Positions 15,533 to 27,622 of a stretch of DNA of 64,000 nucleotides are shown here, piece by piece. Source of the DNA: Eggerthellaceae bacterium (GTDB lineage: Bacteria; Actinomycetota; Coriobacteriia; Coriobacteriales; Eggerthellaceae); assembly GCA_050951095.1 (NCBI GenBank), contig JBMNIQ010000002.1, forward strand, positions 239,099-303,098, written 5' to 3'. The notes beneath the pieces are model-generated. The model did not search any database. It was not told the DNA's origin and saw only the letters and a list, made by a program, of their open reading frames with translations. The position numbers were made by a program, and so were the translations under genes. How positions within the stretch are numbered: position 1 is the stretch's first letter; each line of letters starts with the position of its first letter.

Positions 15533-15618
15533 GCAGGTCAGAGGAAAAATGTCCTCTGGCCTGCATCATTTCATGGTGCCCCCGGGCGGATTCGAACCGT
15601 CGACACCCGCTTTAGGAG
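15533..15618 (-). repeat. att copy 1: terminator hairpin plus 45-nt 3' segment of tRNA-Arg(CCU)
   Basis: 15574-15618 is identical to 27547-27591. The hairpin at 15533-15564 matches 27506-27537. Confidence 0.85.
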
Positions 15619-15778
15619 TGGGTCGGAGGGGTGTACTCGCATACGTATGGATTGCAAAACGCCTGTTCAGAGCGGTATGTGTCGGTTGGCGAAGGTAAAG
15701 AAAATCCTGCCTCCGCCAGGGTTTCTGGCCATTTTATGGCCATGAACGTCTCTGCCTAGACGGTATTTCGGAAGCCTC

Positions 15779-15835
15779 GGTGACGATGGTGACGATAGTG
15801 ACGATGGTTCACATATAGGAGTCTTCATCGTCACC
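15779..15835 (+). repeat. GTGACGAT palindromic module P1
   Basis: GGTGACGATGGTGACGATAGTGACGATGG-TTCACATATAGGAGTCT-TCATCGTCACC. Confidence 0.8.
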
Positions 15836-16582: not shown

Positions 16583-16667
16583 GCAGGCCAGAGGTAACAC
16601 GTCCTCTAGCCTGCGTATTTACTGGTGCCCCCGATACGATTCGAACCGTCGACACCCGCTTTAGGAG
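16583..16667 (-). repeat. att copy 2: diverged terminator hairpin plus 45-nt tRNA-Arg 3' segment
   Basis: 16623-16667 matches 27547-27591 with 4 mismatches (ccgatacg vs ccgggcgg). Confidence 0.8.
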
Positions 16668-16827
16668 GGAAACGGGGAGGGCGAGGACGTTCGCAAAGAT
16701 TGAAAAACGCCTGTTCAGAACGGTGCCCGTCCATCAACGGCGGTGAAGAAAACCGGGATTGAAGCGGAAATTCGGGCCAAATTCGGGACGGGGCCGACCC
16801 TCGGAGAACGACGGGATGGCCCATGCA

Positions 16828-16866
16828 GGTGACGATGGTTCACATATAGGGGGTTTCATCGTCACC
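16828..16866 (+). repeat. GTGACGAT palindromic module P2 (single-repeat version)
   Basis: GGTGACGATGG-TTCACATATAGGGGGTT-TCATCGTCACC. Confidence 0.8.
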
Positions 16867-17022: not shown

Positions 17023-17331
17023 ATGGCGAGGGACAACGAGAGGGACGCGAGGGTCTTCAAGGCGTTCTGCAACGAGTACCGCCTCCAGGTGCTCGAGAGG
17101 CTGCGCACCGGGGAGAAGTGCGCCTGCGACCTGCTGGATCACATCGACATCAGCCAGTCGAACCTCTCGCATCACATGAAGATCCTCGTGGACTCGGGCG
17201 TGGTGTCGGCGCGCCAGGACGGCAAGTGGACCCACTACTCCATCGACCCGGAGGGGGCCAGGGCGGCGGTCGAGCTGCTCGAGGAGCTCACGACGATCCG
17301 CGGCGGCGGAGGTGGCTGCTCCTCCTGCTAG
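17023..17331 (+). CDS. arsR: ArsR/SmtB-family metalloregulator
   Basis: Winged-HTH with a CAC metal site (EKCACDLLDHIDISQSNLSHHMKILVDSGVV) and a C-terminal CSSC. Confidence 0.9.
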   Translation: MARDNERDARVFKAFCNEYRLQVLERLRTGEKCACDLLDHIDISQSNLSHHMKILVDSGVVSARQDGKWTHYSIDPEGARAAVELLEELTTIRGGGGGCSSC

Positions 17332-17386
17332 GGAGGGAGCCGTTCGACGAAGAGCCGCCGCGCGCGGCGTTTTTCTGGGCCAACAC

Positions 17387-17402
17387 ATCAAAATTTTTCG
17401 AT
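17387..17402. promoter_or_regulatory. Candidate ArsR operator 2
   Basis: Same 16-mer as 16993-17008, 21 nt before the acr3 ATG. It is preceded by a GC hairpin plus T5 (17353-17376). Confidence 0.5.
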
Positions 17403-17422
17403 ATGTGAAGGAGACAATCAAC

Positions 17423-18490
17423 ATGAGTCCTAGCGAAAACAGGAAGGGCGCGGCGTCCGGCCTCGGGCTTTGGGACCGGCTGCTCACCCTCTGGATCTTC
17501 CTGGCGATGGGAGCCGGCATCGCCATAGGGGCGGCGTTTCCGGGGTTCTCGGAGGTCCTCGGGGGGCTCTCGATGGGCACCACCAACGTGCCGATCGCCG
17601 TCGGCCTCGTTCTCATGATGTACTCGCCGCTCGCCAAGGTTCGCTACTCGGAGATGCCCAAGGTCTTCGCCGACAAGAAGCTCCTCGCGCTCTCGCTCCT
17701 GCTCAACTGGGTGGTCGGGCCGCTCCTCATGCTCGCGCTGGCCGTCCTGTTCCTCGCGGACATGCCCGAGTACATGGCGGGCGTCGTCATGATCGGGCTC
17801 GCCCGCTGCATCGCGATGGTCCTCGTGTGGAACGAGCTCGCCGGGGGCTCATCGGAGTACGCGGCCGGGCTCGTGGCCCTGAACGCCGTCTTCCAGGTCC
17901 TCCTCTACGGGCCGATGGCCTGGCTGTTCCTCTCCGTGCTCGCCCCCGCGCTCGGCGCCCGGGCGGTCGCCGTCGACGTCTCCATGTGGCAGATAGCCCA
18001 GGGCGTCCTCGTCTACCTCGGCGTCCCTATGGCCGCCGGCGCGCTCACCCGGCACCTGGGCGTGAGGGCGCTCGGCGAGGAGGGGTACGCGCGGCGCGTG
18101 ATCCCCAGGATATCGAAGATCACCCCGGCCGCGCTGATCTTCACCATCGTGGTCATGTTCTCGCTGAAGGGCGGAATGATAGCGACGCTGCCCTACGACG
18201 TCGCGAGGATCGCCGTCCCGCTGGTCGCCTACTTCTGCACCATGTTCTTCGCCAGCTCCTGGCTCGCGCACCGGGCCGGGGCCGACTACCCGCGCATGGC
18301 CTCGGTGGCCTTCACCGCTACCGGCAACAACTTCGAGCTCACCATCGCCATCGCCGCCGCCACGTTCGGGCTCGCCAGCGGGCAGGCCCTGGCGGCCGTC
18401 GTGGGGCCCCTGGTCGAGGTCCCCTCGCTCATCCTGCTGGTGAACGCCGCGCTCGCCCTGAAGCGGCGCTGGTACGAGGGGAAGGGGTAG
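17423..18490 (+). CDS. acr3: ACR3-family arsenite efflux transporter
   Basis: Start at MSPSENRK (ATG 17423, GAAGGAG upstream). It is a ten-helix protein with an ACR3-type N-terminus (LGLWDRLLTLWIFLAMGAGIAIG). Confidence 0.85.
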   Translation: MSPSENRKGAASGLGLWDRLLTLWIFLAMGAGIAIGAAFPGFSEVLGGLSMGTTNVPIAVGLVLMMYSPLAKVRYSEMPKVFADKKLLALSLLLNWVVGPLLMLALAVLFLADMPEYMAGVVMIGLARCIAMVLVWNELAGGSSEYAAGLVALNAVFQVLLYGPMAWLFLSVLAPALGARAVAVDVSMWQIAQGVLVYLGVPMAAGALTRHLGVRALGEEGYARRVIPRISKITPAALIFTIVVMFSLKGGMIATLPYDVARIAVPLVAYFCTMFFASSWLAHRAGADYPRMASVAFTATGNNFELTIAIAAATFGLASGQALAAVVGPLVEVPSLILLVNAALALKRRWYEGKG

Positions 18491-18493
18491 CGG

Positions 18494-19495
18494 ATGGAGG
18501 CGTTCGGGTCGTTCGTCATGGACCAGCTGCTCAAGATGCAGTGGCTGAGCGGGCTCGTATGGAGGCTCCTGTCGCCCCTCGGGCTGACGGAGGGCACGCA
18601 ATGGGGCGAGACGCTCCACTTCTTCGTGTACGACACGGCGAAGATCGTCATCCTGCTCGTCACGATGATATTCGCGATCGGGTACGTCCAGAGTTTCTTC
18701 CCGCCCGAGCGCAGCCGCAGGATCATGGGGCGCTTCAGGGGGTTCTGGGCCAACGTCGTGGGCGCGCTCTTGGGTACTGTCACTCCGTTCTGCAGTTGCA
18801 GCTCGATCCCGCTGTTCATCGGGTTTACGAGGGCGGGGCTGCCGCTGGGGGTCACCTTCAGCTTCCTCATCTCATCCCCTATGGTCGACCTGGGGAGCCT
18901 CGTGCTCATCATGAGCATCTTCGGGCCGGGCGTGGCAGCCGTCTACACGGTCGTGGGCCTGATGATTGCCATCTTGGGCGGCGCGTTTATCGAACGCCTT
19001 CACATGGACGACCAGATCGCCGACTTCGTGCGGGGAGACGCGCCCACCGACGCCGAGCTCCTGGCCATGAGCGTGCGCGACCGGCTCGCCTTTGCGGGGC
19101 GCGAGACATGGTCGACCTTCAAGAAGGTGTTCCCCTACGTCCTCGCCGGCGTCGCGATAGGCAGCCTCATCCACAACTGGATACCTCAGGACGCCGTCGA
19201 GCTCGTGCTGGGCGACCAGAACCCGCTCGCGGTCGTGCTGGCCACCGTCGTCGGCGCCCCCATCTACGCGGACACCTTTGGCGCCATCCCCATTGCCGAG
19301 GCGCTCTACTACAAGGGGACGCAGCTGGGCACGGTTCTGGCGTTCATGATGAGTGTCACGGTGCTGTCCATCCCCAGCTTGACCATGCTCTCGCGGGTTG
19401 TGAAGCCCAAGCTCCTGGCGACGTTCGTGGTGGTCTGCATGGTGGGGATGATTATCAGCGGATATGTCTTCAACTTCCTACAGCCCTTGTTATAG
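18494..19495 (+). CDS. UPF0718/ArsP-like permease with a TPFCSCSS motif
   Basis: Polytopic protein with the motif GTVTPFCSCSSIPLF. It is followed by the small redox-active disulfide protein that typically partners this family. Confidence 0.75.
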   Translation: MEAFGSFVMDQLLKMQWLSGLVWRLLSPLGLTEGTQWGETLHFFVYDTAKIVILLVTMIFAIGYVQSFFPPERSRRIMGRFRGFWANVVGALLGTVTPFCSCSSIPLFIGFTRAGLPLGVTFSFLISSPMVDLGSLVLIMSIFGPGVAAVYTVVGLMIAILGGAFIERLHMDDQIADFVRGDAPTDAELLAMSVRDRLAFAGRETWSTFKKVFPYVLAGVAIGSLIHNWIPQDAVELVLGDQNPLAVVLATVVGAPIYADTFGAIPIAEALYYKGTQLGTVLAFMMSVTVLSIPSLTMLSRVVKPKLLATFVVVCMVGMIISGYVFNFLQPLL

Positions 19496-19549
19496 GAGGA
19501 GCTTCTCAATAGCTGTCCAAGACACAGGCGTTTTGAAAGGAGAAAAACG

Positions 19550-19774
19550 ATGACAAAGGTTCAGGTAATGGGCTCGGGGTGCAAGAAATGCCGCCAGCTC
19601 TACGAAAACGCCGTGGAGGCGCTGGGCGAGGACTCCGTTGAGTACGTCACCGACATGGAACGCATCGCAAATGCCGGCATAATGACCACACCAGCCCTGG
19701 TAGTCGACGGAAAGCCCGTGAGCACGGGCAAGGTGCTCAAGCCCTCCGAGATTTCTGCCCTGGTCTCGGACTGA
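19550..19774 (+). CDS. Thioredoxin-fold small protein (redox-active disulfide protein 2 type)
   Basis: 74 aa with CKKC near the N-terminus (MGSGCKKC) and the TPALVVDG motif. Confidence 0.8.
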   Translation: MTKVQVMGSGCKKCRQLYENAVEALGEDSVEYVTDMERIANAGIMTTPALVVDGKPVSTGKVLKPSEISALVSD

Positions 19775-20237: not shown

Positions 20238-20292
20238 GTGACGATGGTGACGATAGTGACGATGATTGATATATAAGGGGCTTATCGTCACC
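20238..20292 (+). repeat. GTGACGAT palindromic module P3 (abuts the integrase 3' end)
   Basis: GTGACGATGGTGACGATAGTGACGATGA-TTGATATATAAGGGGCT-TATCGTCACC. Confidence 0.8.
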
Positions 20293-20355: not shown

Positions 20356-21720
20356 TTAGCCGGCTGCTCGCATGACGAATTCGTCCAGATCGCAGAGCTT
20401 GGCGCACTCCGTCACCACGAGCCCCGCTCCGTTGCATTCCTTGGCCCAGCAAGCGCCACGCGTTGCATCGTCGGGGGACTCCGTCCATTGCCTGCAGTTG
20501 CGACATTGGGTTTCATTGCCATTCGGCGCGACTAGCGTGCCTATTCTCCGCGCCGCCTCGCGCTTCCACTCGTCGTTGGTGTGGGTGTAGACGCTGTACG
20601 CCTGAAGGCTCTTGTGCCCGGAGAGGTCCCGTGTTGTCCTCTCGTCCATGCCGCAATCACGCGATAGGAAGGTCACATAGGTGTGGCGAAGGCCGTGGAA
20701 CCCAAACCCTTCCGGCACCGGGTAGCGCTTTCGCTCCTGCGCGAACCATCGGTCGAACCGCGCCTGCTGCACGTGGTTTCCCTTGCTGCTGCTGACGATG
20801 GGCATCCCGGTGCTCCATTTCAGGCCGACCTCGTCGCACCATTCTTGCTGGCTCTCCCGCCAACTCTCTAGCAGCGGAACGAGCGGAGGCGGGCAGGGAA
20901 CGATGCGCTCCTCGCCGTTCTTCGTGGACTTGGTCCTCTGGCTGTTCTTCTCCAGGCTGCGGCGGACGTCGAAAAGCCCCCTGTCGTAATCGTCCCAAGT
21001 GAGGGCGAGGACCTCGGAAAGGCGGAACCCGCACATCAACGCGAGGAGCACGCCCATCGGCAGCGCCGCGGGAGGCTCCGATGCGATCAAATCAAAGAGT
21101 TCCTGCGCCTGTCTCGGCGTGAGCGCAGACTTCTCAGGAGTGTCGTTCTTCGGTATGGTCGCCTTGTCGCATGGGTTCACGGTAATGAAGCCGTAGTCGA
21201 TCGCCTTGTTGAACATGCACGAGAGCACGCTATGGGTACGTCGCAGCGTCGTGCCGCTGTAAGGCTTTCCTCTGGGGTTAAGCTTGCCACCGGTGCGCAT
21301 CTCAGCGTACATCTTGTCGATGCTGAGGCTCGTTACCTGATCAAGGCGCTTTTTGCCGATATAGGGAATGGTTCTCGATAGGCATTCGCGGTCAGTTCTC
21401 ACCGTTCGGTTCGAAACGACCATCTGCCCCGCTCTCAGCTCGCAGTACGTCTCCGCGAACTCGCGCACAGTGGGAATGTGCTTGGCATCCTTCCGCCTCG
21501 CGTTGCGCCTGTATTCGGAGATGTTCGCTCGGTTGCCCCCGTGGTAAACGAAGTCGTTAATTTCCTTGAGGACGGAAACCGCTTCCGCCTCGCTCTCGAA
21601 ATCCTCCTGGTAAGCCTCGTACCGCTTCGTCTCATCGTTCCAACCGAGGGGGTAGCGAATCTGCCAAGTGCCGCTATTCCGTTGCCGGAAACTGCCCTTG
21701 TTATGCGGGATCTGCGCCAT
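20356..21720 (-). CDS. int: Tyrosine recombinase/integrase with a ~75-aa Cys-rich C-terminal tail
   Basis: Start at MAQIPHNKG (ATG 21720). Catalytic signature: GFRLSE (R), HGLRHTY (HxxR), GHKSLQAYSVYTH (H..Y). The tail is CRNC..C..C..C..C. Confidence 0.85.
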   Translation of the reverse strand: MAQIPHNKGSFRQRNSGTWQIRYPLGWNDETKRYEAYQEDFESEAEAVSVLKEINDFVYHGGNRANISEYRRNARRKDAKHIPTVREFAETYCELRAGQMVVSNRTVRTDRECLSRTIPYIGKKRLDQVTSLSIDKMYAEMRTGGKLNPRGKPYSGTTLRRTHSVLSCMFNKAIDYGFITVNPCDKATIPKNDTPEKSALTPRQAQELFDLIASEPPAALPMGVLLALMCGFRLSEVLALTWDDYDRGLFDVRRSLEKNSQRTKSTKNGEERIVPCPPPLVPLLESWRESQQEWCDEVGLKWSTGMPIVSSSKGNHVQQARFDRWFAQERKRYPVPEGFGFHGLRHTYVTFLSRDCGMDERTTRDLSGHKSLQAYSVYTHTNDEWKREAARRIGTLVAPNGNETQCRNCRQWTESPDDATRGACWAKECNGAGLVVTECAKLCDLDEFVMRAAG

Positions 21721-22897
21721 CGGCCCCCGCGGCCTTCCTGCGGTTGGCATCGCGCACGCGGCATGCGTCGCTGCAGTAGTCCTTGCGCGTTCCCCGCTCG
21801 TTGGAGAGCACGGCGTTGCCGCAGAGGCGGCACACGGTGATCCGCTTGCCCTCGTGGTACGAGAGCGCGTACCAGAGCGCCGAGGCGAACGAGCGGCACA
21901 GGATGCGCGGGGCGTCGATGTTCTCATGCTCGCCGGAAACGTCGTACTCCCAGCCCGCCTTCTCGCCCTCGAGGTCCAGGTTCACGTACTCGTAGCTGAA
22001 CGACTCGACCACGGAGCGGGCCATCGCCCCCTGGTCCCCGGAGTCCTCGACGCAGAGGTAGAGCGTCCGGTCCTCAGCCGGGACGCGGTTGGGGCGGAAA
22101 AGGCTCCCCCAGGAGGGCAGGTCGTCGGTGGCGAGGGGCTTGGTGGTGAAGAACACGCCCTCGTTTCGGGGGTCGGGATAGCTCGGCGTTATGTCGCCGA
22201 CTCCGGGGATGCTCGTCGCGCGCCTCGCCTTCGGGGCCATCGCCGAGAACAGCGGGTCAGAGGCCGCGTCCACCGCCGCGCTCTTGGCGGGCTTGGCGAA
22301 GAACGGGTTGAACTTGGCAGGTATCACGAGCAGGGGCGCGCCGATGCGCTTGTTGTCAACGCGCTCGAAGCCGGCCTTCGCGAAGATCTGCGGCTCGCCG
22401 CCCTCCATGAGGCCCTTGAGCCTTAGCGCCGTCGAGAGCTGGTTGCGCACGGCCATCCAGTCCTGCACGGGCTCTACCAGGACGGTGAACTCGTCGGAGA
22501 GCGAACCCATGCGCTCCGCGGCCCCCGCGCCGTCGCGGCAGTACTTCTCGACGAACTTCCCGAGCGCGAGGCCGTTGGCTCGCAGGCCCTCGGCGGAGTC
22601 CAGGAAGAGCTCGGCAGCAAGCACGTCGGCGTCGCAAGCGGTGAAGACGGCGGAGAGGAGCTTCGCGGCGTCCGCCGGCGCGAGCATGCGGGGAACCCCC
22701 GCCAGGCTCTCGACGGCGACGATCGGGGGCAGGCCGTCGACGATCTGCACGAGCGCCCCGGGGGCCTTCACGGCGAGGAGGGCGTTGAGCGCGGAGGGGT
22801 CCGGCTCGAAGCTCTCGCGCCTCGCGACGTCGGCGGGCACCGCCCTGACCAGGTAGTGCGTCCTCGTCTTTTTGTTCCTCGTGATGCAGGCGAGCAT
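21701..22897 (-). CDS. Orphan 398-aa protein with a C-terminal zinc-ribbon (CRLC...CSDAC), co-transcribed with int
   Basis: Its stop overlaps the integrase start by 20 nt. No family was recognised by eye. Confidence 0.6.
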   Translation of the reverse strand: MLACITRNKKTRTHYLVRAVPADVARRESFEPDPSALNALLAVKAPGALVQIVDGLPPIVAVESLAGVPRMLAPADAAKLLSAVFTACDADVLAAELFLDSAEGLRANGLALGKFVEKYCRDGAGAAERMGSLSDEFTVLVEPVQDWMAVRNQLSTALRLKGLMEGGEPQIFAKAGFERVDNKRIGAPLLVIPAKFNPFFAKPAKSAAVDAASDPLFSAMAPKARRATSIPGVGDITPSYPDPRNEGVFFTTKPLATDDLPSWGSLFRPNRVPAEDRTLYLCVEDSGDQGAMARSVVESFSYEYVNLDLEGEKAGWEYDVSGEHENIDAPRILCRSFASALWYALSYHEGKRITVCRLCGNAVLSNERGTRKDYCSDACRVRDANRRKAAGADGADPA

Positions 22898-23047
22898 GCG
22901 GGCCCCCTAGATGATCAAGTTACGTCTTTTAGGTCAGTATACCGTTAAATTACGCTATTGCAACATGCTTAGCCGTATGTGATAATCGCGCTAACGGCAT
23001 AATTATAAACGATGCTGTTAACCGTAAATCGAAGAAAGGAGCGAAGG

Positions 23048-23248
23048 ATGGACGAGCTGCTCAACCTCACGGAGGCGTGCGAGGTAATGCACGTGTCCTA
23101 CTCGAAGGGCCAGAAGCTGGCGAAGGCGGGCGCGCTGCCGTTCCGAAAGCTGGGAGCGACCTGGTACATATCCCGATCGGCGCTCTACCGCGAGCTCGGG
23201 ATGGAGGCACCGCGCGGTAAGGAGGAGGACGAGAAGACATGCGCATAG
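23048..23248 (+). CDS. Excisionase-family HTH DNA-binding protein
   Basis: LLNLTEACEVMHVSYSKGQKLAKAGALPFRKLGATWYISRSAL. AAAGGAG RBS. Divergent from the ORF398-int operon. Confidence 0.75.
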   Translation: MDELLNLTEACEVMHVSYSKGQKLAKAGALPFRKLGATWYISRSALYRELGMEAPRGKEEDEKTCA

Positions 23249-23352
23249 ACGAAACGCCCGCCGCGGCCGGTGAAATCTTGGCGGAAGACACGGCCGGGCA
23301 GGCGCCTGCGCCCGGAATCATACCATCCGGCACCGATGCGGGGGCGATGTAG

Positions 23353-23556
23353 ATGGCGCGCAGCTTCTTCTCCGACATGCTCGCCGATGAGCGCCTTCTG
23401 AGCAAGCACGGGCTCGACGCGTGGCCAGAGGAGCGCGAGCTCGCCCGCTACCTGTTCGACCTCGAGGGCAAGGTGGACGCGATCGCCAGGGCGAGCGGCC
23501 TCGCGGTCGAGAAGGACGTGCGGGGCAACTGGCAAGTCTCCCGCCTGGGGCGGTGA
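23353..23556 (+). CDS. Hypothetical 67-aa protein
   Basis: ORF ends 6 nt before the AAA ATPase start. No motif recognised. Confidence 0.4.
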   Translation: MARSFFSDMLADERLLSKHGLDAWPEERELARYLFDLEGKVDAIARASGLAVEKDVRGNWQVSRLGR

Positions 23557-23561
23557 GCCCC

Positions 23562-24566
23562 ATGGCAGCAGCGCTCGAGACGCACGACGCCCAGTGGCTG
23601 CTCGAGCAACCGCTTCCGAAGCACAGCTGGCTCGTGGAGGACCTGATCTCCTCCGGGCTCGTGCTCCTCGTGGGCGCGCCCAAGATCGGGAAGTCGTGGG
23701 CCTCGCTGCAGCTCGCCCTGGCCGTGAGCACCGGCCAGCCGTTCCTCGGGTTCGCCACCACGCAGGGCGACGTGCTCTACCTCTGCCTCGAGGACACCTT
23801 CCAGCGCGTCCAGCAGCGCCTGTTCCGCCTCACCGACGAGGCGAACGACCGGCTCCACTTCGCCGTGGACGCCGAGAAGCTCAGGTGCGGGCTCGTCGAG
23901 CAGCTCGAGGCCTTCGCCGGCGCGCACCCGAGCCTGCGGCTCGTCATCGTGGACACGTTCCAGGCTGTGCGCGTTCCCACGGCGGAGAGCGCCTACAAGG
24001 CGGACTACGGCGACCTGGGCGAGCTCAAGAGGTTCGGCGACGAGCGCGGGATAACCGTCGTGGCGGTGCACCACACCAGGAAGATGGGCGACCCGTCCGA
24101 CGTGTTCAACACGGTCTCGGGAACCAACGGGATCACGGGCAGCGCCGACGAGACCATGGTGCTCGCCAAGGCCAACCGCTACGACGGCACCGCCACCCTC
24201 AACGTCACCGGGCGCGACGTGGAGATGGCCGAGTACCGGCTGCGCTTCCGCGACTGCCGCTGGGAGCTCGTGGGCAAGACCAGCGAGGAGGAGCTCGAGG
24301 AGCGTGAGACGCCGGACGCCGTTCTCGCCGTGCTCGACTTCATGGCGGGCAACGTGACGGGTTGGCGCGGGACCGCCACGAGGCTCATAGCGGACGCGGG
24401 GATAGACGGGGTCAGGCCCAACGTGCTCTCGAAACTCCTCAACGAGCACAGCGACTTCATGGCCGAGCGGGGCGTGCGCTACTCGAGCACCAGAACGAAC
24501 GCAAGCCGCATGCTGCGCCTCGAGAACGTGCCTCCCGAACAATCCCGAGGGCGAGAATCGCGATGA
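23562..24566 (+). CDS. RecA-fold AAA ATPase of the RepA/AAA_25 type (island replication protein candidate)
   Basis: Start at MAAALETHD (ATG 23562). Walker A LLVGAPKIGKSW, Walker B LRLVIVDTFQ, sensor VVAVHHTRK. Confidence 0.75.
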   Translation: MAAALETHDAQWLLEQPLPKHSWLVEDLISSGLVLLVGAPKIGKSWASLQLALAVSTGQPFLGFATTQGDVLYLCLEDTFQRVQQRLFRLTDEANDRLHFAVDAEKLRCGLVEQLEAFAGAHPSLRLVIVDTFQAVRVPTAESAYKADYGDLGELKRFGDERGITVVAVHHTRKMGDPSDVFNTVSGTNGITGSADETMVLAKANRYDGTATLNVTGRDVEMAEYRLRFRDCRWELVGKTSEEELEERETPDAVLAVLDFMAGNVTGWRGTATRLIADAGIDGVRPNVLSKLLNEHSDFMAERGVRYSSTRTNASRMLRLENVPPEQSRGRESR

Positions 24567-24650: not shown

Positions 24651-24846
24651 AGCACAATAGTGTGCTCTTTTGCCCCAGGATTTCCGTGCAGCAAGCTACC
24701 CATTGTGTGACACAAATCGTCACACAATGGATTTCGCATCGTTGATAGCAAGCTACCTATTGTGTGCGCACAAAGCGCGCACACAATCCCCGCTTGCCCG
24801 AAGGCCCGGGTCTCCCCACGCCCCGCCACTATGGAGGGTGGCGGGG
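24651..24846. promoter_or_regulatory. Cluster of hairpins/iterons sharing the CACACAAT/ATTGTGTG motif (candidate origin or operator array)
   Basis: Hairpins lie at 24651-24666, 24700-24730 (12-bp stem), 24759-24787 (11-bp stem) and 24821-24846. The two middle ones are each preceded by GCAAGCTACC (24691, 24748). Confidence 0.5.
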
Positions 24847-24991
24847 CCCGCCGGGCCTTCTCTCTTCGGCGATGCGATGTGGGGGGAGCCCCCGCGCCCC
24901 TGGGACAGAACAAAGCCCGAAAACCCACAGGCCGGAACCCCACACTCTCGGGTACCATTGGAAAACGGAAACCGATCACCCGGGAGCAACC

Positions 24992-25735
24992 ATGCCGATA
25001 GAATTCCGCGACGACTTGCCTTATGACCCGACCGACAAAAAGTCGGTAATCGCATATGCCGGCGCGCTCGTCGGCCACACGCTGCGCGAGGCGACCGACG
25101 CCGGCTCCATCGAGGTCCCGAAGGTCCGCCGCGGAGCTTTCGGCGACAGCGTCGAGTACAGCTACTTCGGAATCGAGCCGAACAGCGTGCAGGGCCCCGA
25201 TTTCCCCGAAGCGGGGCTCGAGCTCAAGACGACCCCGTTGAAGATGACCAAATCGGGCAAGCTCGCCGCCAAGGAGCGCCTCGTCATCACCATGATCGAC
25301 TACATGTCCGTCGTGGACGAGGAGTTCGAGACCAGCACGCTCGTCGACAAGGCGAGGGATATCCTGCTCGTCACCTACCTCTACGAGAGGGACAAGGACC
25401 CGCTCGACTACGTCGTGGAGCTCGCCACGGAGTGGGGCCTCCCCGAGGAGGACATGCCGGTGTTCAAGGAGGACTGGGAGACCGTCGTCGGCAAGGTGCG
25501 CGCGGGCAAGGCGCACGAGATCTCCGGCAGCGACACGCTCTACCTGGAGGCCTGCACCAAGGCGTCCGACTCGTCCATCCGGCGCAAGCAGCCCTTCTCG
25601 GACGTTCCCGCCAAGCAGCGCGGGCGCGACTTCGCAATCATCCTGTCGTGCCTGGCCGAGGAGGGGTACTCCGTGGAGTGGCGCGTGATCAACGCCGCCG
25701 AGTACGGCATGCCCCAGAAGAGGCGCGCGCAGGCG
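24992..25735 (+). pseudogene. Dead R-M system: Sau3AI/MutH-type endonuclease N-terminal part fused to an internal fragment of a C5 cytosine methyltransferase
   Basis: MPIEFRDD... contains DFPEAGLELKTTP and YLEACTKA (MutH/Sau3AI-like). After ...SDVPAKQRG the frame continues as DFAIILSCLAEEGYSVEWRVINAAEYGMPQKRR (Dcm motif VIII context), then it is cut by the IS. Confidence 0.6.
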
Positions 25736-27003
25736 CTCGCGTTTATCGCCTGGCGCGCTATCGCGAGCGCCTGCGCGCGCCTCTCCTCGCCGATCTCGGC
25801 GGGCTCCGGCCGCTCCGCGTAGAGCTCGGCGATCTTGCCGGCGGCGAAGTAGCGGGCCTCCGACCATTCCTCGTCCTGGTCGCACATCACGGCGCCCACG
25901 AGCCTCAGCAGCGAACCCGCAGACGGGAAGACCTGCACCACCCTCGACCTGCGCTTTATCTCGCGGTTGGTGCGCTCCTGCAGGTTGTTGGTACGCAGGC
26001 GCTTCCAGTGGGACCGCGGGAAGTCGAGGTACGCCAGCGCGTCCGGCTCGGCCTCCTCCATGATCGCCGCCGCCCTCGGGCAGCAGCCCTCGAGCATGTC
26101 GATGGCGACGTGGTACATGGCTCGGACGACGTCGGCGTCCTTTGCCCTGAACACGGGCGCGATTATCCTGGCGACGCGCCTGGAGAGCGGGCCGCGCCCG
26201 GCCTCGCGGATGCAGTTGCGCATCAGGTGCACGGCGCACCGCTGCCAGGCGGCGCCCTGGAACGCCTCTGCGATCGCGCGCTTTAGCCCCTCGTGGGCGT
26301 CGGACACGACGAGCTCCACGCCGCAGATGCCGCGCTCCCGCAGGCTTCTCAGGAAGGCCGTCCACGAGTCGTAGGACTCGGTGTCCACCACGTCGAAGCC
26401 CACGACGTGGCGCCAGCCGCCGTCGTCGCAGCCGATCGCGGTCACTACGGCGGTGGAGGCGACGTGCCCCTCCGACCTGCACTTGACGTAGGTGGCGTCG
26501 AGCCACAGGTAGGGCATCCTCGTGCCGCGCAGGTCGCGGCCGAGCAGCTCGTCGGCCTCGGCGTCCAGGCTCTGCGCGATGGCGCTCACCTGGTCCTTCG
26601 ACAGGCGCTCGATCCCCATCTTCGCCGCGACCTTGGCGACCTTGCGGGTGCTGGTGCCGGTGGCGTACATCTCCGCGACCGTTGCGGCCACCGCGCGGTC
26701 GACGCGCTGGTATCGCTCGATGACGTCCTCGGGGAAGAAGCTGCCGCTCCTGAGCTTGGGGATGCGCAGCGTGAGCGTGCCGACGCAGGTCGCGAGCTTG
26801 CGCTCCCTGTAGCCGTTGCGGGCGTTGCCGGTGGCGCCGCACAGCTGGTCGGCCTCGGCGCTCATGATCTCGTTCACCAGCGTCTCGGCCATGCACCTGA
26901 TGAGCTCCTGCATGTTGACGGTGCCGTCCGCGAACCTGGGCATCTGCTGGGGCGCCGGCGCGGTGACGGCCGCGTTCTCTGGTATGATTTCCATCGTGGT
27001 CAT
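25540..27003 (-). CDS. tnp: IS256-family (mutator-type) transposase; the last ~75 codons probably read through the IS end
   Basis: MTTMEIIPE... matches the typical IS256 layout (ADQLCGA, YLWLDATYVK, VVSDAHEGLK, WQRCAVHLMRN). Family proteins are ~410 aa. Confidence 0.85.
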   Translation of the reverse strand: MTTMEIIPENAAVTAPAPQQMPRFADGTVNMQELIRCMAETLVNEIMSAEADQLCGATGNARNGYRERKLATCVGTLTLRIPKLRSGSFFPEDVIERYQRVDRAVAATVAEMYATGTSTRKVAKVAAKMGIERLSKDQVSAIAQSLDAEADELLGRDLRGTRMPYLWLDATYVKCRSEGHVASTAVVTAIGCDDGGWRHVVGFDVVDTESYDSWTAFLRSLRERGICGVELVVSDAHEGLKRAIAEAFQGAAWQRCAVHLMRNCIREAGRGPLSRRVARIIAPVFRAKDADVVRAMYHVAIDMLEGCCPRAAAIMEEAEPDALAYLDFPRSHWKRLRTNNLQERTNREIKRRSRVVQVFPSAGSLLRLVGAVMCDQDEEWSEARYFAAGKIAELYAERPEPAEIGEERRAQALAIARQAINASACARLFWGMPYSAALITRHSTEYPSSARHDRMIAKSRPRCLAGTSEKGCLRRMDESDALVQASR

Positions 27004-27537: not shown

Positions 27538-27546
27538 GGTTTCATC

Positions 27547-27622
27547 TGGTGCCCCCGGGCGGATTCGAACCGTCGACACCCGCTTTAGGAGAGCGGTGCT
27601 CTATCCCCTGAGCTACGGAGGC
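27547..27622 (-). tRNA. tRNA-Arg (anticodon CCU), CCA encoded
   Basis: The hand-folded cloverleaf has acceptor GCCTCCG/CGGGGGC, anticodon stem CCGCT/AGCGG, loop CUCCUAA and T-loop GGTTCGAATCC. Confidence 0.9.

Follow-up and report, generated by a model that had tools for sequence, protein, structure and literature searches.

The 64,000-nucleotide stretch of Eggerthellaceae bacterium DNA analysed here (the window; GenBank assembly GCA_050951095.1, contig JBMNIQ010000002.1, positions 239,099 to 303,098) carries an integrated island in which a 398-aa open reading frame (ORF), ORF398, lies between a tyrosine integrase gene (int) and a divergent helix-turn-helix (HTH) gene of the HTH_17, Xis/AlpA-like type (xis). 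It is well supported that ORF398 belongs to an uncharacterised, lineage-restricted family in a known functional slot of a known kind of element. Positional or correlative evidence leads us to favour, tentatively, a role as the element's own HTH-less regulator of the int/xis switch.

Position and inheritance of ORF398

The gene was first described in a sequence-only reading as a 398-aa ORF ending 20 nt within the integrase ORF (Table 1), which the sequence confirmed. Its start was backed by homologues aligning from residue 1 and by a G-rich Shine-Dalgarno-like stretch. The mechanical integrase ORF extends to 21927, and the conserved integrase start MAQIPHNKG corresponded to the ATG at 21720, matching relatives.

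The window island was ordered int, ORF398 and a 150-bp control region, followed on the other side by the HTH_17 gene, a 67-aa ORF, an AAA_25 ATPase gene and cargo. This core layout recurred in L001-3, L008-19, L025, L052 and L053, with ORF398 identity from 98% down to 21%. The elements also carried NikA-like, type IV coupling protein (T4CP; TraG), MOB relaxase or VapE primase genes, and are therefore integrative mobilisable elements. ORF398 had been said to occupy the usual place of an island's master regulator, and in terms of position this stood: the slot upstream of the integrase and divergent from the HTH_17 gene was kept in at least 15 loci, down to 21-25% identity, which is a first reason for reading ORF398 as a regulator.

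In all six genomes of the class sample that harbored its integrase clade (E<=1e-60), ORF398 was directly upstream of int, and it was intact in all homologous islands examined. Co-occurrence with this clade held in those six genomes, but some ORF398 family members were far from any integrase. In three genomes (G124, G210 and G364) the member diverged from a gene for a 2190-aa methylase-helicase, and ~58 kb separated it from a 444-aa integrase. The closest integrase in G194 was 13 kb off. The G311 contig had no integrase, its member diverging from a DnaB operon, and the G323 integrase belonged to the opposite (HTH_17-ATPase-int) operon. Because some members are 13-58 kb from any integrase, ORF398 is not an obligate integrase partner. 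Its constant feature is to adjoin and diverge from the early/replication operon of the element, adjacency to int not being constant, and this persistence of the divergent position without an adjoining int also speaks for a regulator.

These observations bear on an alternative considered unlikely, in which ORF398 would be a recombination accessory factor, acting as a directionality, target-choice or inhibitory partner of the integrase, with its YacG-like ribbon docking onto the enzyme, possibly onto the Cys-rich tail of the latter. Such a partner would fit a gene that lies immediately upstream of int, sometimes overlapping it, and that precedes every integrase of the clade (6/6 in the class sample, plus metagenomic loci). 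It would also fit the conserved Cys-rich C-terminal extension unique to that clade, found after the catalytic Tyr in 13/13 integrases (window, L001, L003, L008, L010, L011, L013, L014, L052, L053, L055, L058 and L059) and not present in integrases adjoining other superfamily members, and the fact that the ribbon's closest structural match, YacG, is a protein that binds a DNA enzyme and thereby inhibits it. The extension may be a metal-binding module, unusual among tyrosine recombinases. The members distant from any integrase, or with none on their contig, are difficult to reconcile with this role, as are a separate HTH_17 Xis-type gene, an RNA contig depth several-fold higher over ORF398 than over int, and a divergence of ORF398 much faster than that of int. 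Furthermore, a recombination breakpoint falls exactly between the two genes, so that ORF398 at 98% identity functions next to an integrase of 73% identity. As an HTH_17 excisionase or recombination directionality factor ORF398 was rejected, being 398 aa long with no HTH_17 match and adjoined by a separate 66-aa HTH_17 gene.

The breakpoint was displayed by comparison with L008, a locus from an Eggerthellaceae metagenome-assembled genome (MAG). Nucleotide identity was 95-100% from 23150 to 21750, over the xis 5' end, the control region (98% identical together with ORF398) and all of ORF398, then fell from 97% to 54-81% right where ORF398 stops and stayed there over the N-terminal half of int. 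At the protein level ORF398 was 98% identical and the integrase only 73%. The partner with which ORF398 is inherited is the control region, not the integrase, and this single block of ORF398, control region and xis 5' end also argues for the regulator reading. In four DNA metagenomes (bioreactor, landfill), contigs broke at 21692-21721 and the window-type int was covered less deeply than the ORF398/control block, which was 1.5-3x deeper; co-occurring elements therefore share this block but differ in their integrases.

The overlap had been taken to indicate an operon with coupled expression, a view that is supported in part only. It is present in the window, but it is not conserved among homologous loci, where junctions included overlaps of 20 nt and 8 nt and gaps of 30 and 235 nt; the breakpoint exactly at the junction and the steep drop in RNA depth from ORF398 to int (described below) also count against coupling. 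The junction had neither an intrinsic terminator nor an unusually stable RNA fold.

Across more distant loci ORF398 was the fastest-diverging gene of the module. Identities to L011 were 32% for ORF398, 50% for int, 68% for xis and 64% for AAA_25, and those to L016 were 24, 48, 67 and 57%, respectively. Ratios of nonsynonymous to synonymous substitution rates (dN/dS) were 0.13 and 0.22 against two relatives, with similar values for neighbouring genes, and eight substitutions in environmental RNA kept the frame intact. ORF398 is a real, conserved and expressed gene under purifying selection. Fastest divergence within the module under maintained purifying selection is a pattern typical of immunity or sensor proteins, and adds to the case for a regulator.

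Control region, transcription and known switches

The control region contained two promoter-like sites (0.4 expected by chance), with one palindromic -35 in common. The near-consensus ORF398 promoter, its -35 shared with the opposing promoter, and the co-inheritance with the control region further strengthened the claim on regulator position, and these back-to-back promoters constitute another argument for the regulator reading. An inverted repeat (TATACCGTTA/TAACGGCATA) spans the -10/+1 regions of both promoters, and 2 of the 16 CCGTTA hexamers of the window fall within the 150 bp.

A 99%-identical variant of the element was present in four mud metatranscriptomes. Contig depth, a crude expression measure used here without normalisation to DNA of the same samples, was 9-30 over ORF398, 2-4 over the xis region, 5-22 over AAA_25 and 0-3, in fragments, over int; the order of ORF398, xis and int is as the regulator reading would have it. 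ORF398 contigs of two runs ended at 22932 and 22937, near the predicted start site. The L008-type integrase was not covered by RNA, and the contig continued ~22 nt into the window-type int before ending, so that the drop in depth reflects lower int RNA and not an allele switch. RNA contigs over the 67-aa ORF and AAA_25 began at 23181, at 23224 (immediately following adaptor sequence) and at 23307 and were 3-10x deeper than those over xis, suggesting that the replication genes have a promoter or processing site of their own, located within xis or beyond it.

A working model can be proposed on this basis. A strong leftward promoter would transcribe ORF398 constitutively in the integrated island, with int reached by weak read-through. 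Sensing or oligomerisation could fall to the compact body of ~345 aa, and contact with nucleic acid in the control region to the Cys4 ribbon and basic C-terminal helix, which are attached to the body rigidly. By this means ORF398 would hold down the opposing promoter, which serves both the Xis-like HTH_17 gene and the replication-mobilisation operon; the activities that we infer for it are sensing, DNA binding and repression.

Comparable layouts are known. BPs-type phages transcribe rep and int leftward from PRep and cro rightward from PR, around a control region of ~200 bp (PMC3694055), and in ICEBs1 a single, apparently constitutive operon of immR, immA and int faces Pxis (PMC5812530). That the island matches rep-int versus cro and immR-immA-int versus Pxis is a further reason for the regulator reading, and by analogy ORF398 could be a functional counterpart of ImmR, Rep, CI or Stl devoid of an HTH, a proposal as tentative as the regulator reading. 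As with ImmR and BPs Rep, the gene is leftward with int from a control region of 150-200 bp, divergent from an xis/cro promoter and apparently constitutively expressed when integrated; as with CI/ImmR/XRE-type repressors in general, it shares the int strand, opposite xis/cro, and adjoins a divergent control region. Unlike ImmR and Rep, ORF398 is without an HTH_3/XRE or other recognised DNA-binding domain (no HTH_3/XRE match in Pfam, NCBIfam or PHROGs) and has no sequence or fold similarity to them. It is also 3-4 times larger, lacks an ImmA-type protease partner and does not contain attP within its gene.

Stl of Staphylococcus aureus pathogenicity islands (SaPI) and phage-inducible chromosomal islands (PICI) offers a second likeness, since ORF398 is upstream of int, divergent from an xis/pri-rep operon and highly divergent between related islands, and its large non-DNA-binding body could act as sensor. 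The domain order is reversed, however, with the body N-terminal, the putative nucleic-acid-binding ribbon C-terminal, and no HTH. In contrast to SaPI/PICI, the ORF398 elements are not phage satellites but mobilisable islands, carrying genes for relaxase, T4CP and NikA, and no packaging or interference genes were seen in them. In the minimal elements (L052, L053) the other conserved genes serve integration, replication or mobilisation and none is repressor-like, which leaves ORF398 as the candidate for that function.

Several points weigh against a regulatory role. The small ribbon aside, no DNA-binding domain was detected in ORF398, and FCS and YacG-type ribbons can bind protein instead of DNA. 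A k-mer search over 10 control regions returned no family-wide operator motif, and the inverted repeat, a weak lead as candidate operator, is the only one available. The HTH_17 protein could be the only regulator. The unnormalised RNA depths have to be set beside the DNA metagenomes of other sites, in which the ORF398 block itself was 1.5-3x deeper than the window-type int. AAA_25, downstream of xis, was transcribed about as strongly as ORF398, so that the rightward module is not fully silent, unless AAA_25 has its own promoter.

Family, predicted fold and zinc ribbon

ORF398 had been termed an orphan, which proved incorrect. An exhaustive HMMER scan covering 1.84 billion representatives yielded 137 clusters of relatives at 50% identity (E<=0.001), and 66 at E<=1e-10, while a word-indexed search gave only 6 relatives and a second word-based search just 2 more proteins. 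Nearly all homologues were 370-430 aa long and aligned end to end. Public names of cluster members were "hypothetical protein" in every case, where annotated at all, and named sources were Denitrobacterium, Olsenella, Eggerthellaceae, Coriobacteriaceae and Coriobacteriales, with one exception. This was a 405-aa member in the cluster of a Denitrobacterium protein (P0004), deposited in a MAG labelled Kiritimatiellia, by mis-binning or by transfer outside Actinomycetota. Full-length members occurred in ~13 of 401 Coriobacteriia genomes. In a sample of ~400 Actinomycetota genomes one full-length match was obtained besides the window genome, from the same order, and none outside that order; tblastn against plasmid and phage collections gave no match.

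ORF398 (P0001) matched no Pfam (0 families at E<=0.1), NCBIfam or PHROGs entry beyond weak ribbon matches. The sequence-only reading had recognised no HTH in it, and none appeared in Pfam, NCBIfam or PHROGs, nor did any fold match in PDB; no well-known family, such as a replication initiator, accounted for the protein. Literature searches on DUF6076 and on integrative mobilisable elements in Eggerthella returned nothing.

In an alignment of 74 sequences, E142 and four Cys were invariant, and L93, D146, R151, G176, G369 and R380 nearly so. The body was marked by the motifs VEP(V/L)xDW...RN, G176-F177 and IPxKFNPFF, the most conserved being VEPVQDWMAVRN; D146 and R151 were not maintained beyond the family, in the wider superfamily. 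Two further blocks had been singled out as conserved-looking. FFTTKPLATDDLPSWGSLFRPNRVP was not kept family-wide, its C-terminal part (~residues 261-280) having the lowest predicted local distance difference test (pLDDT) value of the structure model, and YLCVEDSGDQ was conserved in closer relatives, but only there.

The conserved acidic residues E142 and D146 would suit a replication or transfer initiation factor, that is, an origin-binding initiator or a primase-like partner of the AAA_25 helicase. The helicase has no primase domain, zinc ribbons are common in primases, and the gene always adjoins a replication module (AAA_25, VapE, DnaB or RecA-like ATPase). Nevertheless, such a role appeared very improbable, given that the wider superfamily does not retain D146 and R151, that the gene is on the strand opposite to the replication genes, and that no similarity to archaeo-eukaryotic primases, DnaG, Rep or any initiator was obtained in Pfam, PHROG, PDB-sequence or Foldseek searches.

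The AlphaFold2 model, built from the 74-sequence alignment, had a mean pLDDT of 93.2 and a predicted template modelling (TM) score of 0.92. It indicates one compact alpha/beta globule in which the ribbon packs onto a body of ~345 aa. Foldseek gave no match better than E=1.7 in PDB and E=0.13 in BFVD, and the predicted body fold appears to be without neighbour, "novel" being relative to these two collections. The only sensible local Foldseek matches were zinc ribbons (YacG 4tma, HNH-associated ribbons and FlhC). The match to 4tma was limited to the ribbon (E=2.6, probability 0.44, TMt 0.5-0.57), and a PDB sequence-profile search likewise touched ribbons only, namely YacG (1lv3, 4tma; E=0.24-0.35) and the polyhomeotic FCS finger (2l8e). 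Matches of the profile search to PRDM9 and ZBTB were discarded as repeat artefacts of the CxxCG motif.

The Cys4 ribbon and its basic tail were the best conserved feature of the family. The C-terminal CRLCGNAV/CSDACR ribbon with basic tail described earlier is real, with a spacer of 11 residues, not 12. Its sequence, CRLCGNAVLSNERGTRKDYCSDAC, fits C-x2-C-x(n)-[FYW]-C-S-x2-C, a regular expression matched by 116 of 141 family proteins. Pfam scanning of the 74 members retrieved small zinc-finger families only (at E<=0.01, zf-FCS in 6, zf-FLZ in 3, zf-CGNR in 2 and TRASH in 1; 12 of 74 members in all), and ORF398 itself was under every Pfam threshold, including that of zf-FCS (PF06467) and relatives. 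Because some members match these families, the ribbon is classed, at the sequence level, as a predicted treble clef of FCS/TRASH type. The tail was always net basic (charge +1 to +11) and the body mostly acidic, a polarity that is also in favour of the regulator reading.

FCS/MYM/TRASH fingers and E. coli YacG resemble ORF398 in C-x2-C-x15-[FY]CS-x2-C, over ~35 of 398 residues only. YacG, a gyrase inhibitor of 65 aa, consists of one small zinc-ribbon domain and binds GyrB through its C-terminal tail, whereas the ORF398 ribbon is packed onto a ~345-aa body; with this large body and a fold match limited to the ribbon, ORF398 was not retained as a YacG-class protein. ABATE + zf-CGNR proteins (DUF1470; PF07336 + PF11706), putative regulators of Actinobacteria, are built on a similar plan, an uncharacterised N-terminal body preceding a ...CS..C(G/R) ribbon and basic tail at the C-terminus, but their bodies are unrelated to that of ORF398. 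Identity with them was rejected (hhalign probability 4.8%, ribbon only; Foldseek to 3h0n, probability 0.06, TMt 0.27).

Family-profile searches of genomes also matched proteins of 280-530 aa, at profile positions ~320-389 only, which delimits a C-terminal module common to several families. Against a 470-aa family, the module aligned with an hhalign probability of 97% over 71 columns, and the bodies did not align. The model of that family (pLDDT 77) had its secondary-structure elements in a similar order, with an additional helical domain at the C-terminus, and Foldseek found it no PDB neighbour (best match E=0.009, TM ~0.1). Smaller module relatives (L031, L032, L033) were in the same slot, with an integrase gene following them and an XRE or HTH_17 gene diverging from them; this occupation of one slot by other module-bearing families is an additional reason to read ORF398 as a regulator. 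Proteins of 450-530 aa (L034 and L036-L040 in G180, G284, G324, G138, G337 and G052; also L028-L030, L035, L041, L042) had only the zinc-ribbon module in common with ORF398, followed by a ~100-aa helical domain. They were found in many genomes of one genus, adjoining genes for an ATPase and a zinc-ribbon membrane protein and no obvious mobile element, and may be a domesticated relative.

A broader proposal, which we regard as rather doubtful, is that ORF398 and the families with its 70-aa module form a new class of mobile-element master regulators of Coriobacteriia islands, setting the decision between integrated and excised states. In such a class, an FCS-type ribbon would replace the HTH for operator or partner binding and would be fused to fast-diversifying sensor bodies of a fold unseen in solved structures, possibly with the control-region DNA as well as the Cys-tailed integrase as targets.

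Rapid divergence, together with related families that look like variable bodies on a constant C-terminal module, could instead reflect an accessory, moron-type gene of the integrated island, devoted to superinfection exclusion, anti-phage or anti-defence functions. In Gram-positive prophages, sie and ltp genes lie between int and the switch, a slot to which that of ORF398 can be likened. Transcription at good depth in environmental samples would agree with this role, and so would restriction-modification or methylase genes beside some members (L046, L045, L052) and the MutH-like/Dcm cargo that the window island itself carried. This origin is nonetheless improbable, as ORF398 is a core gene in one fixed slot while cargo changes, no other repressor candidate is encoded on its strand, and no homologue was found in the phage or plasmid collections. 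PADLOC also gave 0 families for P0001, P0007 and P0107, none of its known anti-phage defence models being matched.

Island surroundings and significance

The features of the window are collected in Table 1. The HTH_17 gene probably starts at Met13 of the mechanical ORF beginning at 23012, its homologues being 66 aa long and starting MDELL.

Table 1. Features of the island around ORF398 (window coordinates)
Feature	Position	Strand	Details
Tyrosine integrase, 454 aa	20356..21720	minus	PF00589 E=2.5e-16, phrog_1 E=2.5e-61
Cys-rich integrase C-terminal extension, residues 406-454	20359..20505	minus	CxxC-x2-W-x2-SP-x-D-x3-G-x-CW ... C
ORF398 coding sequence	21701..22897	minus	398 aa + stop, ATG to TAA; member of unnamed Coriobacteriia family
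ORF398 3' end / integrase start overlap, 20 nt	21701..21720	minus	also recombination breakpoint and assembly-graph branch point
C-terminal conserved module, residues 322-398	21704..21934	minus	strand, S..LWY helix, Cys4 ribbon, basic helix
Cys4 ribbon (predicted zinc)	21761..21832	minus	C356-x2-C359-x15-C375-x3-C379, CxxCG...[FY]CSxxCR; FCS/TRASH/YacG type
Most conserved body motif VEPVQDWMAVRN, residues 141-152	22442..22477	minus	strand-to-long-helix junction; E142 invariant, D146/R151 near-invariant
Divergent control region, 150 bp	22898..23047		between ORF398 and HTH_17 gene
Candidate ORF398 promoter	22936..22963	minus	TTGCAA, 16 nt, TATACT
Candidate HTH_17-operon promoter	22958..22986	plus	TTGCAA, 17 nt, (TG)GATAAT (TGnGATAAT)
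Inverted repeat TATACCGTTA / TAACGGCATA	arms 22938-22947, 22992-23001		spans -10/+1 regions of both promoters
HTH_17 (Xis/AlpA-like) gene	23048..23248	plus	PF12728 E=2e-07, TIGR01764
67-aa ORF between HTH_17 and AAA_25 genes	23353..23556	plus	same 67-aa gene in L001, L002
AAA_25 RepA/helicase-like ATPase, replication module	23553..24566	plus	PF13481 E=1e-30
tRNA-Arg(CCT), integration site	27547..27622	minus	3' part repeated at 16617-16680 and 15568-15631

The 3' segment of the tRNA-Arg gene was present in three copies (the two repeats of Table 1 and 27541-27604), the marks of stacked elements. Arsenic-resistance (ars) genes at 17023-19774 were on the opposite side of the int-ORF398-xis-AAA_25 core compared with L008 (640-8938), and the tRNA was adjoined by int in L008 and by the cargo end in the window, which looks like a circular permutation or another stacking order of two elements. 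Tandem units of GTGACGATG were located near each att copy and just 3' of int (15780-15825, 16811-16856 and 20238-20283); 26-28 nt of this module also occurred in L001, and the units are candidate arm-type sites.

On the cargo side, a MutH-like type II restriction endonuclease gene was fused or adjacent to a Dcm-type methylase fragment (24764-25822 and 25540-27003). An IS256-like transposase gene (487 aa, minus strand) interrupted this pair, so that the restriction-modification cargo of the island is broken. All four metatranscriptome variants left the window sequence right after 24532, near the AAA_25 end, for one same unrelated sequence, which therefore places a cargo boundary of the element there.

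Coriobacteriia, Eggerthellaceae among them, are common in gut, rumen and bioreactors, and to our knowledge almost nothing is known of how their mobile elements are controlled, though the cargo includes arsenic-resistance and restriction-modification genes. Among the conserved core genes of a class of small mobilisable islands, the ORF398 family alone has no assigned role, and its location is precisely the point at which excision is decided. With a confidently modelled fold of ~345 residues and a shared zinc-ribbon module, it is a good target for structure determination whatever its function. Should the regulator reading be correct, ORF398 would represent a non-HTH solution to the integrase/excisionase switch and would provide a handle for predicting or manipulating island mobility.

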